Origin: an uncultured Actinomycetota bacterium
GTDB lineage: Bacteria; Actinomycetota; Actinomycetes; S36-B12; UBA10799
Length of the DNA stretch: 64,000 nt
Reading direction: 5' to 3'
Assembly: GCA_963732355.1 (NCBI GenBank)
Contig: CAVSZD010000007.1
Coordinates: 658,983-722,982 of the forward strand
Shown here in pieces: positions 5,474 through 45,355 of the stretch. The translations under genes were made by a program, and so were the position numbers. Every line of letters starts with the position of its first letter. The first letter of the stretch is position 1. The notes beneath the pieces were generated by a model. The model was not told the DNA's origin. It saw only the letters and a list, made by a program, of their open reading frames with translations, and ran no database searches.

Positions 5474-5548
5474 GCCCCGTTAGCTCAGTGGTAGAGCACT
5501 CGCCTTGTAAGCGAAAGGTCGTCCGTTCAATCCGGACACGGGGCTCCA
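5474..5548 (+). tRNA. tRNA-Thr (anticodon UGU), CCA encoded
   Basis: Hand-folded cloverleaf. Acceptor stem GCCCCGT/ACGGGGC, D-arm GCTC-AGTGGTA-GAGC, anticodon loop CTTGTAA (TGT at 5506-5508), T-arm GTCCG-TTCAATC-CGGAC, discriminator T, CCA at 5546-5548. Confidence 0.95.
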
Positions 5549-9245: not shown

Positions 9246-9363
9246 TCTGGACAGTCTGCCAACGCCGCTGGGCACACCTGTTGCCACGGCCGCCGTTGTT
9301 GCGAAGTCGCCCGGGCCCTCGCGGGGTGTCCTCGTCACTCCGAACCGTGCCGCGGCGCCCGCG

Positions 9364-9431
9364 TTAGAGGTTGTGGTCCTGGTTAGCGAATCCACGCGTT
9401 GTTTCTCTAACCAACCGCACAACCTCTAACC
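9364..9431. repeat. 68-bp nested-palindrome element (reverse orientation)
   Basis: TTAGAGGTTGTGGTCCTGGTTAGCGAATCCACGCG...CACAACCTCTAA. The left arm equals the reverse complement of the right arm of the 45228 copy. Confidence 0.9.
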
Positions 9432-9515
9432 AACCGTGGCGGGGGCCGCCGTTGTGCAGCGCCCGGGCCCTCGCGGGGTGTCCTCGTCACTCCGAACCGT
9501 GCCGCGGCGCCCGCG

Positions 9516-9583
9516 TTAGAGGTTGTGGTCCTGGTTAGCGAATCCACGCGTGGTTTCTCTAACCAACCGCACAACCTCTAACC
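9516..9583. repeat. 68-bp nested-palindrome element (reverse orientation)
   Basis: Near-identical to the 9364 copy. Confidence 0.9.
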
Positions 9584-9690
9584 AACCGTGGCGGGGGCCA
9601 CCGCCCTGCCAGACCACATCGGCGCCGTGTCGCAACCACCCGCAACGCCGCCCAGCCCGCATGCTGGAATCGATGCCGACTGGAGGTTAG

Positions 9691-10300: not shown

Positions 10301-11244
10301 CACACCCACTTCCCGGTCGGAGCAGTCGACAACGGCGGTCTTTCCAGATCGACGATGGCGTGCCACGTGCCCACGAAGTCGTGCCCCACCCGGTCGAACT
10401 GCGCCATCGCCTGACCCGCCGCCCGCGAGTCGTGCAACTGCGGATCAAGCCGGCGCACCGCGGTTTGCATGATCTGTGCGGCCATGAGGCCCAGCTTGCG
10501 TTCATCGTGGTGGCGATGCAGCCGGACCCCGAGGTCCACCTGAGCGATCGCGTCCACCCCGAGCAGCTCCGCGGTGTCCACGAGCATGGCGAACTCGACT
10601 CCGTAACCGACCGGGAAGGGCAGTCGTTCCAGCAGGTCCCGCCGCGCGGCGTACTCTCCGGCCAGCGGCTGGATGACCCCGGCCAGTTCGGGCCAGTAGA
10701 GGTTCAACAGTGGGCGCGCCACCAGTTCGGTCACCCGTCCACCCCCTGCAGCCACCACCGAATCGCCGCTGACCAACGGTCGCTCGTAGACCGCCTTGAC
10801 CAGATGAACCGACGGATCGGTGAGCAGCGGGCCCAAGAGCCCACTCACGTACTGCGCGGTGAATGAACGCAAATCCGCATCGATGAACACCACGATGTCC
10901 GAGTCGGTGGCAGCCAGCGCCCGCCACATCGCTTCGCCCTTGCCGCGCATCGCAGGAAGTCGGGGGAAGACCGAGTCAAGAGCGATCACCCGGGCGCCGT
11001 TGTCCCTGGCGACGGCCGCGGTGTCATCGGTCGAACCCGAGTCCAGCACCACCAGATCGTCCACTAGCGACTCACCGAGTTCGTCGTGGATGATTCGGAC
11101 TATTTGCCCGACGGTGGCGGCCTCGTTCAACGCCGGCAGGATCACCGCGACTGTCGCCTCCTTGCGCGCAAGGAGGTCGTCGATGTCCCAGTCGTCGGCT
11201 GTGGACGTACGGTTGTCCAGCCAGTGCTGAACATGCTCGGTCAC
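10300..11244 (-). CDS. gpgS: glucosyl-3-phosphoglycerate synthase
   Basis: GT-A fold motifs AVILPALNEAATVGQIV and VVLDSGSTDDTAAVA. Length and neighbours match actinobacterial GpgS. Confidence 0.85.
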   Translation of the reverse strand: MTEHVQHWLDNRTSTADDWDIDDLLARKEATVAVILPALNEAATVGQIVRIIHDELGESLVDDLVVLDSGSTDDTAAVARDNGARVIALDSVFPRLPAMRGKGEAMWRALAATDSDIVVFIDADLRSFTAQYVSGLLGPLLTDPSVHLVKAVYERPLVSGDSVVAAGGGRVTELVARPLLNLYWPELAGVIQPLAGEYAARRDLLERLPFPVGYGVEFAMLVDTAELLGVDAIAQVDLGVRLHRHHDERKLGLMAAQIMQTAVRRLDPQLHDSRAAGQAMAQFDRVGHDFVGTWHAIVDLERPPLSTAPTGKWV

Positions 11245-11293
11245 GTGCCCCCCAGGGGTTTCGGTCGCGATAAGCGTGTCACAATTCCTTAGA

Positions 11294-11400
11294 CCTCATC
11301 CAGAGGGGCAGAGGGACCGGCCCGTTGAAGCCCCGGCAACCTACCGTTACACGGCGGAAATGGTGCCAAGTCCGGCCGCGCGAGCGGGAAGATGCGAAGG
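11294..11400 (+). promoter_or_regulatory. SAM-I (S-box) riboswitch aptamer
   Basis: CTCATCCAGAGGGGCAGAGGGACCGGCCCGTTGAAGCCCCGGCAACC...ATGGTGCCAAGTCCGGCCGCGCGAGCGGGAAGATG follows the S-box consensus (AGAGnGGnnGAGGGAnnGGCCCnnTGAAnCCnnGCAACC...GGTGCnAAnTCC...AGATGAG). P4 has a GCGA tetraloop. The P1 3' strand runs into the GAAGGA Shine-Dalgarno of the downstream gene. Confidence 0.85.
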
Positions 11401-11406
11401 ATTGCC

Positions 11407-12646
11407 ATGACGATCGATCTCGGAAGTGCAGTCGGACTCTCCTGTCGGGAGTGTTCTGCCAGCTACGAACTCGGCGCCGCCTACGCGTGCATCGAGTGCT
11501 TCGGTCCGCTCGAGGTGGCCTACGAGTTCCCCGCCCTCACCCGCGCCGACATCGAATCCGGTCCCGCATCGCTCTGGCGGTACAAGGACCTGCTGCCCGT
11601 GCGGCCTCAAGCCGCCACCGAGCCGAACCTCGCCCCAGGCTGGACCCGCCTGCACAAGGCCGACAACCTGGCCGCAGAGTTGGGGATGCGCAGCCTGTGG
11701 GTCAAGGACGACTCGGGAAATCCGACCCACTCGTTCAAGGACCGGGTCGTGGCTGTGGCTCAGTCGGCAGCGCGAGCCCTGGGGCTTACGACCCTTGGCG
11801 TGTGCCTCGACCGGCAACCTCGCCCACGCGGTTGCCGCAGCCGCTGCCCGCGGCGGCCAGAGCTCGGTCGTGGTCATCCCGCATGACCTCGAGGCCGGCA
11901 AGACGATAACAACAGCCACTTACGGCGGGGTGTTGCTGGCGGTCGAGGGCAACTACGACGACGTGAACCGTCTGTGCTCCGAGATCATCGGGGAGGACTT
12001 CTCCGCGAATTGGGGTTTTGTCAACGTCAACATCCGCCCGTACTACGCGGAGGGCTCGAAGTCGATGGGCTTCGAGATCGCCGAGCAACTGGGCTGGCGG
12101 ACCCCTGCGCAAGTTGTGGCACCGATCGCCTCCGGGTCCCTTTTGACCAAGGTTGACAAGTCCTGGCGCGAACTCGCTGCCCTTGGGCTCATCGAGCAGA
12201 CGCCTTACAGCGTGTTCGGTGCCCAGGCCACCGGCTGTTCCCCGGTCGCGCAGGCTTTCGATGCCGGGTGGGACGTCGTCAAACCCGTGAAACCCGCGAC
12301 CATCGCGAAGTCGCTGGCCATCGGCAACCCGGCCGACGGGCCCTACGCGCTCGATGTCGTTCGGCGCACGGGCGGCTCGATCACCTCGGTCAGCGATGAG
12401 GACGTGGTCGATGGGATCCGGATGTTGGCCCGGTCGGAGGGCATCTTCGCTGAAACCGCCGGCGGGGTGGTCGTGGCCTGCCTGCGGCAACTACTCAAGG
12501 AGGGCGCGCTCGACCCGGAAGCCGAAACCGTGATCCTCAACACCGGTGATGGGCTAAAGACCCTCGATGCTGTGATGGACTTCGCGAAACCGACTGCCAC
12601 CATCCGGGCGGATGTTGACGAGGTACGTGCTGCATTGCCTGAATAG
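11407..12646 (+). pseudogene. threonine synthase family PLP enzyme (ThrC/MetM-like), interrupted by a 1-nt frameshift
   Basis: N-terminal Zn-ribbon (CRECS...CIEC) and SFKDR lysine motif are in frame 1 up to ...ALGLTTL. ACASTGNLAHAV and the rest are in frame 2. The switch is at the CCC run at 11792-11794. Start set to ATG 11407, with GAAGGA 6 nt upstream. Confidence 0.85.
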
Positions 12647-12768
12647 CCAATCGGTGGGTCTATTTCCCACGAGCGGCTCGTTCTGGGTACAATGGGGGTG
12701 ATCACATCGTGGTCCCGCGGAGCAGAAGCCGAGCGGCACATGAAACACAGCAAGGACAACACAACGAA

Positions 12769-12981
12769 ATGAGCAGTGTCAGCGGAACCGTTAAGTGGTT
12801 CAACGCCGAAAAGGGCTACGGCTTCCTCTCCCTCGACGACCAAGAAGGCGACGTCTTCGTGCACTGGAGCGCAATCCAGGGCGACGGATACAAGTCCCTT
12901 CAAGAGGGTCAGCGAGTCGAGTTCACCATCGTGCAAGGACCGAAGGGCGCGCAGGCGGACACCGTCGTGCCGTTGTCCTGA
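12769..12981 (+). CDS. cspA: cold-shock protein (CspA family)
   Basis: [15 protein letters not shown] and DVFVHWSAI are the RNP1/RNP2 motifs. 70 aa, with a long AT-richer 5' leader. Confidence 0.95.
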
Positions 12982-13235: not shown

Positions 13236-13505
13236 GTGATTCAGACAGTCAGCTGGGTGCTCAACATCCTCTTCTTGGTCCTGGCCCTGTTCGCGTTGGT
13301 CGACGTTCTGCGCCGCCCGACTGAGGCCTTCCCTGCGGTGGAACGCCAATCCAAGATCGCGTGGGCTCTCTTCACCGGAATCAGCGCAGCCGTGATCTTC
13401 ATCTTTGGTGCCGTCAATTTCCTGGGCATCGTCGGTGTCATCGTCACGATGTTCTACTTCGTCGATGTGCGGCCGAAGGTCCGCGAAATCACCGGGAGTC
13501 GATGA
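13236..13505 (+). CDS. DUF2516 family membrane protein
   Basis: 89 aa, three TM helices, LVDVLRRPTEAFPAVERQSKIAW pattern. The stop overlaps the next start (ATGA at 13502-13505). Confidence 0.8.
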   Translation: MIQTVSWVLNILFLVLALFALVDVLRRPTEAFPAVERQSKIAWALFTGISAAVIFIFGAVNFLGIVGVIVTMFYFVDVRPKVREITGSR

Positions 13506-14252
13506 ACCGGCCGGTCGGCCAGGTCACCCGCGGAACCACAGGCACCAACCGCTTACGCCGGTTCGACCGTTGGATCAACCACCTGTGCGGTCCTGAACTA
13601 CGCCGGACCGATCGTCCGCTGGCCGTGGATCTGGGATTCGGCGCACACCCCGCCACCTCCGTTGAATGGCAACGCTCGCTCACGCGGATCAATGCGCAGG
13701 CACGAGTGGTGGGGGTGGAGATCGATCGGGGTCGGGTGGCCGCGGCACGCGGTGTGATCGAGGCGATCCACGGCGGCTTCGAAATCCCCACTGAAGACCG
13801 GCCACTCATCATCCGTGCGGCCAATGTGCTGCGTCAATACGAACAGGACCGACGTGCAGCCCGCCTGGGAACTCATGGCATCGCGACTTGCCGCCGGAGG
13901 TTGGATCATCGACGGCACGTGCGACGAACAAGGGCGACTCACCGCCATCGCGAGCATCGACGAATCCGCCGAGCCAAGGTGGCTGACCCTGTCGTGCCGC
14001 TTGGCCGGGTTGGAGCGCCCGAGCGAACTGGCCGCGCGACTACCGAAGGCCTTGATCCACCACAACGTCACCGGCCACTGGATCCACGACCTGCTCAAGG
14101 AAATGGACCGGGCCTGGGAGCGTGCGCCCAGGTGGGGCGCGCGGCAACGCTGGATCTCGATGACCGAGGATATGGCCGGCGCTGGCTGGACCGTTCGGGA
14201 TGGACCTGCCCGGTGGCGCCTCGGCGAACTGACTGTGGCCTGGCCGCCGTGA
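13502..14252 (+). pseudogene. class I SAM-dependent methyltransferase-like protein, interrupted by a 1-nt frameshift
   Basis: Frame 2 gives MNRPVGQ...AVDLGFGAHP...IIRAANVLRQYEQ. Frame 3 continues DVQPAWELMASRLAAGGWIIDGTCDEQGRL...VAWPP. The switch is near 13843-13850 (GAC-C-GAC). Confidence 0.75.
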
Positions 14253-14467
14253 ACGGCGACACTGCCCCGGGTTTGAATCCCTCAGATGCTCATCGCCGAC
14301 TGGCACGAACTTACTGGGACGCGCCCTGGCGTGTCCCAGTTGTGGATTCGCTGACCAGGACGGCTCGGCCGTCGGGGCACACCACGACCCCGGGTGAACC
14401 TCAACGGCCGGCGGCGGGCACCAGCTGCCCCGCCCCGACTCGCCACGCGGGCCCCGACCTGCCCGCG

Positions 14468-14535
14468 TTAGAGGTTGTGCGGTTCGTTAGCAAATACACG
14501 CGTGGATTCGCTAACCAGGACCACAACCTCTAACC
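14468..14535. repeat. 68-bp nested-palindrome element (forward orientation)
   Basis: TTAGAGGTTGTGCGGTTCGTTAGCAAATACACGCGTGGATTCGCTAACCAGGACCACAACCTCTAACC. Confidence 0.9.
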
Positions 14536-14665
14536 AGGACGCCAGGTCAACCAGGACAACCCGGCCGTCGGGGCACACCACGACCCCGGGTTGAACCTCA
14601 ACGGCCGGCGGCGGGCACCAGCTGCCCCTGCCCCGACTCGCCACGCGGGCCCCGACCTGCCCGCG

Positions 14666-14733
14666 TTAGAGGTTGTGCGGTTCGTTAGCAAATACACGCG
14701 TGGATTCGCTAACCAGGACCACAACCTCTAACC
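14666..14733. repeat. 68-bp nested-palindrome element (forward orientation)
   Basis: Identical to the 14468 copy. Confidence 0.9.
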
Positions 14734-14862
14734 AGGACGCCAGGTCAACCAGGACAACCCGGCCGTCGGGGCACACCACGACCCCGGGTTGAACCCCACC
14801 AGCCGGCGGCCGGCACCAACTGCCCCGCCCCGACTCGCCACGCGGGCCCCGACCTGCCCGCG

Positions 14863-14992: not shown

Positions 14993-15511
14993 TTACCGGC
15001 CAACAGTGGCGCGGACCTTCTCGACCGCAGACTCAACGCGCTCGCGCAGGTCGGCAGCGGAGTCCTCGGCGCGCTTGCGCAGGTCAGCGGACTGACCCTC
15101 AACGCGCTCGCGCAGGTCGCCGTAGAGACCCTCGAACCGGTCGCTGACCTCGTCGAACTTCGGGAACTCGATCTTGGGCAGGTCGAACGGAAGCTCGAAC
15201 TTGGGCAGCTCGAAGGGCAGCATGGCGAGCAGGCTGTCCTTGGCCTCAGTGGCCTTGTCCACGACCGGCTTCGCAGCCTCGGTGGCCTTGGCAGTGGTGC
15301 TCTTCGCAGCCTCAGTGGCCTTGGCAGTGGTGCTCTTGGCAGCCTCGGTGGCAGCGGCGGTCTTCGCCGGGGCCTTCTTGGCAGCAGCGGCGGTCTTCGC
15401 CGGGGCCTTCTTGGCAGCAGCGGCGGTCTTGGCCGGAGCCTTCTTCGCCGGAGCCTTCTTGGCCGGAGCCTTCTTCGCAGTGGTGGGGGTGGTGTCGGCA
15501 GTGGTAGCCAT
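14993..15511 (-). CDS. Lys/Ala/Pro-rich repeat protein with C-terminal coiled-coil
   Basis: The N-terminus carries AKKAPAK and AKTAAAAKKAP repeats, like basic HupB/HbhA tails, followed by TEAAKSTTAKA repeats. The C-terminus is DLRERVE/DLRKRAE heptad-like. The start abuts the stop of the XRE gene. Confidence 0.75.
   Translation of the reverse strand: MATTADTTPTTAKKAPAKKAPAKKAPAKTAAAAKKAPAKTAAAAKKAPAKTAAATEAAKSTTAKATEAAKSTTAKATEAAKPVVDKATEAKDSLLAMLPFELPKFELPFDLPKIEFPKFDEVSDRFEGLYGDLRERVEGQSADLRKRAEDSAADLRERVESAVEKVRATVGR
15270..15476. repeat. intragenic tandem repeats (33-bp, 36-bp and 15-bp units)
   Basis: CTTCGCAGCCTCGGTGGCCTTGGCAGTGGTGCT about 2.4x, GGCGGTCTTCGCCGGGGCCTTCTTGGCAGCAGC 2x, and GGCCGGAGCCTTCTT 3x. 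These encode the low-complexity N-terminus. Confidence 0.8.
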
Positions 15512-28071: not shown

Positions 28072-28490
28072 CCACCATCACCCACCAGCCAAACCGGACC
28101 CCCGGCGGCTGGCGCACGGTTTGCCGCCACCCACGGGCCAAACCGCGCCCAGCGGCGAAGCAAAGCTGGAAACCGGCAAACCAATCGCCCGATCCCACCA
28201 TCACCCACCGGCCAAACCGGACCCCCGGCGGCCTGGCGCACGGTTTGCCGCCACCCACCGGCCAAACCGCGCCCAGCGGCGAAGCAAAGCTGGAAACCGG
28301 CAAACCAATCGCCCGATCCCACCATCACCCACCGGCCAAACCGGACCCCCGGCCTGGCGCACGGTTTGCCGCCACCCACCGGCCAAACCGGACCCCCGGC
28401 CTGGCGCACGGTTTGCCGCCACCCACCGGCCAAACCGGACCCCCGGCCTGGCGCACGGTTTGCCGCCACCCACCGGCCAACCGCGCCCAA
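28072..28490. repeat. compound tandem repeat array (~123-bp unit x2 then 47-bp sub-unit x~3.5)
   Basis: CCACCATCACCCACC starts at 28072, 28195 and 28319. CCAAACCGGACCCCCGGCCTGGCGCACGGTTTGCCGCCACCCACCGG recurs with a 47-bp period from about 28336. Each unit contains the imperfect inverted repeat CGGCCAAACCG / CGGTTTGCCG. Confidence 0.85.
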
Positions 28491-42201: not shown

Positions 42202-42245
42202 GCCACCATTGAACCAGTGGTCGCCGCCCCAAGCGGGACCGTTGG

Positions 42246-42313
42246 TTAGAGGTTGTGCTGTTGGTTAGCGTTTCAACGCGTGGATTCGCTAACCAACGGA
42301 ACAACCTCTAACC
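42246..42313. repeat. 68-bp nested-palindrome element (sub-family 2)
   Basis: TTAGAGGTTGTGCTGTTGGTTAGCGTTTCAACGCGTGGATTCGCTAACCAACGGAACAACCTCTAACC, in the divergent promoter region of the methyltransferase gene and pgm. Confidence 0.9.
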
Positions 42314-42380
42314 AGGGACGGATGTACGCCAAACGGCATAGGCCGGGAACGCGCAACCGAAGCCGACTACCCTGCCAGAC

Positions 42381-44002
<1,622 letters not shown>

Positions 44003-45031: not shown

Positions 45032-45062
45032 CGCGCCCCGACCCAGCCCGCAAGCGCCCGCG

Positions 45063-45130
45063 TTAGAGGTTGTGCGGTTCGTTAGCGAATACACGCGTGG
45101 ATTCGCTAACCAGGACCACAACCTCTAACC
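45063..45130. repeat. 68-bp nested-palindrome element (forward orientation)
   Basis: TTAGAGGTTGTGCGGTTCGTTAGCGAATACACGCGTGGATTCGCTAACCAGGACCACAACCTCTAACC. Confidence 0.9.
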
Positions 45131-45227
45131 AGGAGCACCGCGGGGTTGCCGCACCGCCCCGCCGGCGCCCCGGCGTCGCACCTCCCGAGGCGTCGCCGGG
45201 CGCCCCGACCGCTCGCACCCCACCGCG

Positions 45228-45295
45228 TTAGAGGTTGTGCGGTTCGTTAGCGAATCCACGCGTGGATTCGCTAACCAGGACCACAACCTCTAACC
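45228..45295. repeat. 68-bp nested-palindrome element (forward orientation, perfect inner 30-mer palindrome)
   Basis: The inner GTTAGCGAATCCACGCGTGGATTCGCTAAC is perfectly self-complementary. This copy starts 165 bp after the previous one. Confidence 0.9.
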
Positions 45296-45355
45296 AGGAG
45301 CACCGTTGCACCGACCCGCCGGCACCGAAGGGGAGGCAACGCGGGCCCCAAACCC

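Follow-up and report, generated by a model that had tools for sequence, protein, structure and literature searches.

A SAM-I riboswitch as a probable translational OFF switch on a MetM-type gene without adjacent metO in an uncultured actinomycetote

The stretch of DNA analysed here, 64,000 nucleotides (nt) from an uncultured Actinomycetota bacterium that we refer to as the window, carries an S-adenosylmethionine (SAM)-I, or S-box, riboswitch aptamer. It is followed almost immediately by a gene for a pyridoxal phosphate (PLP) enzyme of the threonine synthase (ThrC) fold and then by cspA (Table 1). An Rfam scan with cmscan places the aptamer at 11293 to 11398 on the plus strand (RF00162, model positions 1 to 108, 79.5 bits against a gathering score of 44.4, E = 4.5e-17), which agrees to within 2 nt with the 11294 to 11400 proposed in a preliminary description of this DNA. 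Across the window, the only second Rfam match is one tRNA. The SAM-I aptamer is genuine, and the RNA from 11293 to 11398 would be expected to bind SAM. For comparison, we assembled a sample of 86 relatives, consisting of 80 genome loci among the matches listed and 6 further loci (L081-L086), giving 87 sequences with the window; the genome of the window itself is not one of the 80 listed. Nine of these relatives (L001-L003 and L081-L086) belong to the same clade as the window.

We built a covariance model of our own from the Rfam-located aptamers of related loci. This model scores the window aptamer at 108.8 bits and locates a single aptamer, ahead of the gene, in each of the 87 sequences (83 to 128 bits); with Rfam, a SAM-I aptamer was found upstream in 11/11 related loci scanned. 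Across 85 homologous aptamers, 99.2% of the helix cells are paired, compared to 37% to 51% in slid controls. Compensatory changes are present at 6 pairs, located in P2, P3, and P4, with 95 double-change cells versus 20 in shuffles. The pseudoknot between CCGG 11317-11320 and CCGG 11372-11375 has 3 invariant pairs, and its fourth pair covaries, being A-U in 45 sequences and C-G in 19. P4 is the hairpin CCGC-GCGA-GCGG at 11376-11387 and thus has the GCGA tetraloop ascribed to it in the preliminary description. The P1 helix of the family comprises 6 base pairs (bp), the last of which, C11295-G11396, is C-G in 83/85 sequences. The fifth pair (11296/11395) is U-A in 73/85 sequences, and the window has a U-C mismatch at this position.

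The 3' strand of P1 runs straight into the Shine-Dalgarno (SD) sequence, as had been noted before: P1 ends at G11396 and AAGGA begins at 11397, within the previously assigned GAAGGA, which we place at 11396-11401. The equally confirmed ATG 11407 lies 8 nt past the end of the aptamer, with a gap of 5 nt between AAGGA and ATG. A sequence scan found no terminator-like site between the aptamer (11293) and ATG 11407, and the 8-nt spacer leaves no room for one; terminator-based control was therefore rejected. The first in-frame start codon is located 8 to 20 nt after the aptamer in 86/87 sequences, the exception being a broken gene, suggesting that translational control is a trait of the whole family. 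Barrick and Breaker (2007; PMC2258182) described SAM-I riboswitches of Actinobacteria with the ribosome-binding site in the 3' side of P1, allowing direct translation attenuation, a design said to be most frequent in this phylum. The window resembles that design in having no terminator, an SD that starts where the P1 3' strand ends, and an actinobacterial host, but differs from it in that the core of the SD is placed immediately beyond the 6-bp P1 of the family, or is paired via a bulged register. The missing terminator, the conserved start codon spacing, and the published design all support the initial proposal that control is translational rather than terminator-based.

The SD overlaps the P1 helix of the Rfam model only at its 2 outermost positions (107-108), with the core outside the family P1. 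In the best duplex that the P1 5' strand can form with the tail, CCU 11294-11296 is opposite AGG 11398-11400, with a 3-nt bulge (-4.3 kcal/mol). At high SAM concentrations, SAM would bind the aptamer (11293-11398), and P1 would close by pairing of 11295-11300 with 11391-11396. Since AAGGA (11397-11401) abuts P1, can partly pair with CCU 11294-11296, and is only 5 nt away from the ATG, the closed P1 and the compact aptamer would jointly occlude the SD and block 30S binding at this site. At low SAM, P1 would open and the gene would be translated, i.e., the element would behave as an OFF switch. A different way of sequestering the SD is present in the minimum free energy (MFE) fold, where UCCUU 11286-11290 and CAAU 11282-11285 pair with AAGGAUUG in a long extension of P1. 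We rejected this upstream anti-SD extension as the main model because there is no family-wide duplex signal (the duplex of 5' flank and P1 strand with the tail is no better than with shuffled tails; mean z +0.73, and 0 of 69 distinct family members at p <= 0.05) and because UCCUU is probably upstream of the transcription start.

The position of the transcription start is suggested by a conserved element ahead of the aptamer. GCGTG(T/G)CACAATTC is invariant in 8 aligned clade sequences, and in the relatives as a whole (L001-L086), a hexamer with the consensus (A/T)(C/A)AACT is found at -12 to -7 from the aptamer, at a fixed distance of 6 to 7 nt. ACAA[CT] starting at -12 occurs in 30/86 loci, versus a background of 0.0008 per position; the same site holds TAGGCT, TAGAGT, or TAACCT in other lineages and TG(T/G)CACAAT (11277-11286) in the window clade. 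A simple promoter-consensus scan made no call at 11277-11285. Given its conservation and placement, the hexamer is probably a -10 promoter element, with transcripts beginning at the edge of the aptamer (approximately 11291-11293), which would leave UCCUU 11286-11290 untranscribed.

Most relatives outside the window clade (L004-L080) have GAUGAGGA-(GAAA)GG-CCUC-...AUG between the 3' end of the aptamer and the start codon. A GAGG...CCUC hairpin is predicted in 56/56 distinct tails (mean z -1.12). Its 5' arm GAGG overlaps the last 3 bases of the P1 3' strand, its 3' arm mimics the 16S anti-SD, and L007 carries a compensatory GAGUA...UACUC. In the window clade, there is no such hairpin, and the spacer is the shortest of the family (8 to 10 nt).

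The protein encoded downstream, read after removal of one base as explained below, has a PALP domain at residues 76-380 as its sole Pfam match (E = 5.8e-62). Without exception, the 86 homologues have the four N-terminal cysteines and the PLP lysine, K111. The preliminary description had proposed a ThrC-family PLP enzyme with a zinc ribbon; the enzyme part is borne out by the PALP domain and K111, while the ribbon is read from the cysteine pattern only, which suggests that the N-terminal Cys4 segment may bind metal. The closest proteins among the matches listed are 75% to 91% identical and come from metagenome-assembled genomes (MAGs) of uncultured Actinomycetota and "Candidatus Nanopelagicales". 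The 80 genome loci include 11 from Streptomyces, 12 named Kribbella, and several from Actinomadura, in addition to others, at 64% to 72% identity over the full length. For the riboswitch-metM-metO genes of Streptomyces (11 loci), full-length identity is 64% to 66%, with the Cys4 motif included. A ThiS-like metO gene (approximately 92 to 95 amino acids (aa)) is located directly downstream in 71/80 genome loci. Its ThiS-family identity was confirmed by Pfam PF02597, and the encoded protein ends in GG in 48/71 and in GGC in 10/71 cases. In a neighbour-joining (NJ) tree of 86 proteins, the window protein nests within the riboswitch-metM family.

According to PMC12172450 and 2 preprints (bioRxiv 10.1101/2024.10.14.618325; bioRxiv 10.64898/2026.09.15.751699), MetM of S. 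albulus is a ThrC homologue that converts O-phosphohomoserine to homocysteine with MetO thiocarboxylate, helped by MoeZ and Mec; in PMC12172450, Hasebe et al. 2024 (Appl Environ Microbiol 90:e01247-24) is cited for a SAM riboswitch preceding S. albulus metM. Like that system, the window has a gene for a ThrC-homologous PLP enzyme behind a SAM riboswitch. Unlike it, the window has no metO within 64 kb, cspA comes directly after metM, the spacer is short, and the spacer hairpin is missing. A related arrangement is the CysM/CysO/Mec system of Mycobacterium tuberculosis, in which a PLP enzyme acts on an O-phospho amino acid with a ThiS-like thiocarboxylate as sulfur donor. MetM follows the same logic, and the GG or GGC ends of MetO in the related loci are as expected for carriers. 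The window protein differs from CysM in its expected substrate, O-phosphohomoserine, in belonging to a ThrC-like rather than a CysK/CysM-like subfamily, and in having no carrier gene at its locus. The identity of 64% to 66% to Streptomyces metM loci compared to 35% to ThrC, the riboswitch in 86/86 relatives, and the metO gene in 71/80 support membership of the MetM family, and with it the initial suggestion of a MetM-like enzyme rather than ThrC. By homology, the reaction catalysed would be the conversion of O-phosphohomoserine to homocysteine.

The region from 11407 to 12646 had been taken as a single reading frame, which is not the case: it is covered by open reading frames (ORFs) at 11392-11886 and 11426-12646 in different frames, with the switch at approximately 11797. 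Deleting one base around 11792-11798 produces a 412-aa protein reading ...ALGLTTLACASTGNLAHA... across the junction, and all homologues share this repaired reading. The G at 11797/11798 is extra compared to every relative examined, including L001-L003, which have one base fewer and encode proteins that are approximately 90% identical. A look-up with the CspA protein gave 6 related contigs, among them L084 (ENA ERZ25039462 contig_14644, 461 kb), which is 99.0% identical to window positions 2789-23004; L087, from the same contig, is 99.6% identical to 43436-64000. The L084 gene is intact and encodes 412 aa that are 100% identical to the repaired window protein, and leader, aptamer, and SD are identical as well. 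Apart from the extra G, the only differences between the 2 genes are 5 synonymous substitutions, each at a third codon position. Compared to L082 (88% identical), there are 121 nt differences, of which 110 are at third positions, and just 7 amino-acid changes, indicating that the gene is under strong purifying selection.

Another isolated extra G, at 13846, frameshifts a 249-aa gene (13502-14252, plus strand) without a Pfam match that is otherwise identical to the intact L084 copy (10734-11483). Split genes are also present in related long-read MAG contigs (L083 8640-9921, PALP; L085 12530-13449, Asparaginase_II; L087 3475-4414, AMP-binding). Given these single-base indels, long-read consensus noise is a much better fit than gene decay, and they indicate that such errors are frequent in the data source of these contigs. 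Most likely, the additional G at 11797/11798 arose in assembly or consensus calling, and the organism itself probably has an intact 412-aa gene. Single-base frameshifts of this kind would lead automatic annotation to miss or split the gene.

As the preliminary description had it, no MetO/ThiS-like gene follows metM and the next gene is cspA (12769-12981); indeed, there is no ThiS/MoaD-like ORF anywhere in the window. Searches with tblastn and with a profile hidden Markov model made from 71 MetO sequences returned nothing in the 64-kb window at E <= 10, and we therefore rejected a hidden metO. With the same profile and threshold, no MetO-like ORF was found in the 13- to 20-kb loci of the 9 clade relatives, and no clade contig is among the best 120 MetO homologues listed, which are cluster representatives only. 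Other sulfur or methionine genes are likewise absent from the rest of the window, as are moeZ, mec, and thrB; it holds the pst operon, ppk, NAD and pantothenate genes, and others. In the NJ tree of 86 proteins, the window clade (10 genomes) is monophyletic with the MetO-linked L004, L005, and L011 as sisters, and there are 2 further MetO-less groups, L017/L071/L068/L049/L054 and L033. This implies at least 3 separate events in which the adjacent carrier gene disappeared or moved. Of these 2 groups, the larger consists of Sporichthyaceae/Acidothermaceae/Nakamurella MAGs and L033 is a Frankiaceae MAG; both keep riboswitch and metM, and, judging from ORF translations only, cspA, groEL, or heme-biosynthesis-like genes follow metM.

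The persistence of the riboswitch and of purifying selection suggests a continuing role of the gene in SAM-related metabolism. The MetO-less enzymes themselves show no sign of altered function: among 202 columns with at least 90% conservation in MetO-linked MetMs, the window clade departs at 4 (A149G, T219S, V262I, and K361H/Q) and retains the other 198, and the second MetO-less clade has none of these 4 changes. As sulfur donor, we presume either free sulfide or a ThiS/CysO-type carrier encoded elsewhere. CysO-type carriers are common in Actinobacteria, and a ThiS/CysO-type carrier encoded elsewhere is the simplest reading.

We consider, with a probability of approximately 75%, that the SAM-I riboswitch is a translational OFF switch on a MetM-type PLP homocysteine synthase that uses O-phosphohomoserine and that would feed homocysteine into methionine and SAM synthesis. 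Several observations speak against this. The orthology is based on loci of other Streptomyces that share this arrangement and not on the S. albulus MetM sequence, and MetO is missing from the window. The P1 helix of the window is weak (4 bp, the U-C mismatch, and 1 bp), and in constrained folding of the window RNA, SD accessibility varies with the assumed 5' and 3' ends, with no clear two-state behaviour and no discrimination between models. It is also conceivable that the frameshift is genuine, and the protein passes the TIGR00260 thrC equivalog model (250 bits versus a cut-off of 167). This last result would suit a true threonine synthase, for which SAM would tune translation to balance the threonine and methionine branches. 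It is joined by the naming of the 90% cluster, in which all named members are called "threonine synthase", and by the nearest solved structures, which are ThrCs (Aquifex 2zsj, 162 bits and 35% identity; M. tuberculosis 2d1f, 142 bits), with none closer in the PDB copy searched. However, the TIGR00260 pass explains the names without separating MetM from ThrC, and GapMind 2026 notes frequent misannotation of MetM as threonine synthase. The score for NF006050, 258 bits, is below the cut-off of 303. The window protein shares the fold, SFKDR, and ASTGN with ThrCs (2zsj, 1uim, 6cgq, and 2d1f), but is only about 35% identical to them and has an extra N-terminal Cys4 segment of approximately 50 residues, ThrC matches beginning at residues 52-57. 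Moreover, its gene is riboswitch-controlled and flanked by a glycosyltransferase gene and cspA rather than by hom-thrC-thrB, and a sulfur-carrier gene adjoins it, operon-like, in most relatives; there is no second ThrC-like gene in the window or the 87 loci. Family-wide SAM control suits methionine synthesis; if ThrC were turned off by SAM, cells rich in methionine would be expected to starve for threonine. We therefore regard a threonine synthase as highly improbable. Cysteate synthase and other PALP subfamilies were rejected, with scores far under their cut-offs.

A frameshifted gene might also be a real pseudogene, with a genuine extra G, a truncated 160-aa product, and the riboswitch left as a relic. 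The frameshift is, after all, present in the given sequence, and just one other contig is recorded as encoding the exact intact protein. On the other hand, that contig encodes precisely the repaired protein with only silent differences and has the same aptamer and SD, and the isolated extra G at 13846 in an otherwise identical gene and the single-base indels of the comparison contigs are what consensus noise would produce; gene decay was for these reasons rejected as the likeliest reading, and we consider it improbable. For a functional MetM-type enzyme, the question of the sulfur source leads to a third alternative, namely that the MetO-less clade has a carrier-independent O-phosphohomoserine sulfhydrylase using free sulfide, or an enzyme using another nucleophile. 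In its favour are the missing ThiS-like gene in the window and in loci of up to 20 kb of 9 clade relatives, the absence of metO beside metM in 2 other lineages, the riboswitch and strong purifying selection that persist regardless, and, in PMC12172450, a mimic of the MetM reaction with Na2S as sulfur source. Conversely, the retention of nearly all MetO-linked columns and the lack of convergence with the second MetO-less clade fit unchanged chemistry with the carrier elsewhere, and since MetO is a ThiS-family protein, other ThiS/MoaD-family carriers encoded elsewhere could substitute for it. We think that this alternative is rather unlikely. About equally unlikely is the broader proposal that MetM functions without a dedicated MetO in the window clade and, independently, in 2 other lineages, drawing sulfur from free sulfide or from a carrier of another pathway, as a stand-alone, SAM-riboswitch-controlled O-phosphohomoserine sulfhydrylase. 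If true, this would be a shorter bacterial homocysteine route than the published MetM/MetO/MoeZ/Mec pathway.

The link between the riboswitch and metM was already published in 2024, and the window locus is a further example, without adjacent metO. Its assignment to the SAM-riboswitch/metM system of Streptomyces is based on sequence and synteny, and one defining feature of that system, the adjacent metO, is absent here. What is new is the presence of the link in all 86 further actinobacterial loci examined, the recurrence of metO-less lineages, and the probably artefactual nature of the frameshift. The link is thereby extended from Streptomyces to many actinobacterial families, with a riboswitch at every locus examined. 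As judged from these comparisons, the "threonine synthase" of a widespread group of environmental Actinomycetota is almost certainly a methionine-pathway enzyme under SAM feedback, a reassignment that matters for metabolic reconstruction of uncultured Actinomycetota. Lineages that keep metM conserved and SAM-regulated after losing the adjacent metO offer a natural way to test whether MetM needs MetO.

Table 1. Positions of the riboswitch, the metM-like gene, and other features in the window.
Feature	Position	Strand	Basis
Putative extended -10 element TGTCACAAT	11277..11285	+	Suggested by conservation
SAM-I (S-box) aptamer, four-way junction P1-P4	11293..11398	+	RF00162 and own covariance model
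P1 5' strand CUCAUC, partner 11391-11396	11295..11300	+	Family alignment
P2 loop half CCGG of pseudoknot with J3/4 (11372-11375)	11317..11320	+	Family alignment
P4 hairpin CCGC-GCGA-GCGG, GNRA tetraloop	11376..11387	+	Sequence, MFE fold, covarying pairs
P1 3' strand GAUGCG, switching strand	11391..11396	+	RF00162 and family alignment
SD GAAGGA; core AAGGA (11397-11401) directly after last P1 pair	11396..11401	+	Sequence; invariant in clade alignment
metM-like gene, ThrC-fold PLP enzyme, 412 aa after one-base removal at 11797/11798; ATG 11407, stop TAG 12644-12646	11407..12646	+	
Codons of Cys13, Cys16, Cys28, Cys31 (CxxC-x11-CxxC), putative zinc ribbon	11443..11499	+	Cysteine pattern
Lys111 codon, SFKDR motif, PLP lysine of ThrC/PALP fold	11737..11739	+	Invariant; aligns with solved ThrCs
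GG doublet with one extra G, frame shift	11797..11798	+	Comparison with L001-L003 and L084
cspA, 70 aa, CSD domain; next gene after metM	12769..12981		
73-nt repeat copies	2734-2806, 9363-9435, 9515-9587, 14467-14539, 14665-14737, 42245-42317, 45062-45134, 45227-45299		

The cspA gene has a promoter-like site of its own (TTCCCA-18-TACAAT, 12664-12693), and the 70-aa CspA is identical on at least 19 contigs. It stays beside metM also in lineages that have lost metO; the genes are arranged metM-metO-cspA-groEL in Streptomyces and other genera. A candidate groEL at 42381, expected from this synteny, was rejected, the gene being that of a phosphoglucomutase. The tRNA in the window is a tRNA-Thr (anticodon UGU; 5474-5548, plus strand) located 6 kb upstream of the riboswitch. 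It is also near the locus in L001 and L003 and has no apparent link to riboswitch-metM.

The window also contains several types of repeats. Eight copies of a 73-nt palindromic intergenic repeat, 81% to 95% alike, have the form GTTAGAGGTTGTG...TTAGCG...ACGCGT...CGCTAAC...CACAACCTCTAAC, and some of them lie inside tandem units of 144 to 198 nt. Judging from its sequence, this repeat looks like a repetitive extragenic palindrome (REP) or miniature inverted-repeat transposable element (MITE). These repeats account for most of the multi-base indels that separate the window from the 99%-identical contig. An intergenic tandem array with periods of 47 nt and 124 nt is present at 28081-28480, upstream of the pst phosphate-transporter operon. 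Finally, a 172-aa protein encoded at 14993-15511 on the minus strand has Lys/Ala-rich repeats of the AAKKAPAKT type, with 15- to 33-nt DNA repeats at 15344-15484, and may be a histone-like or HU-tail protein.

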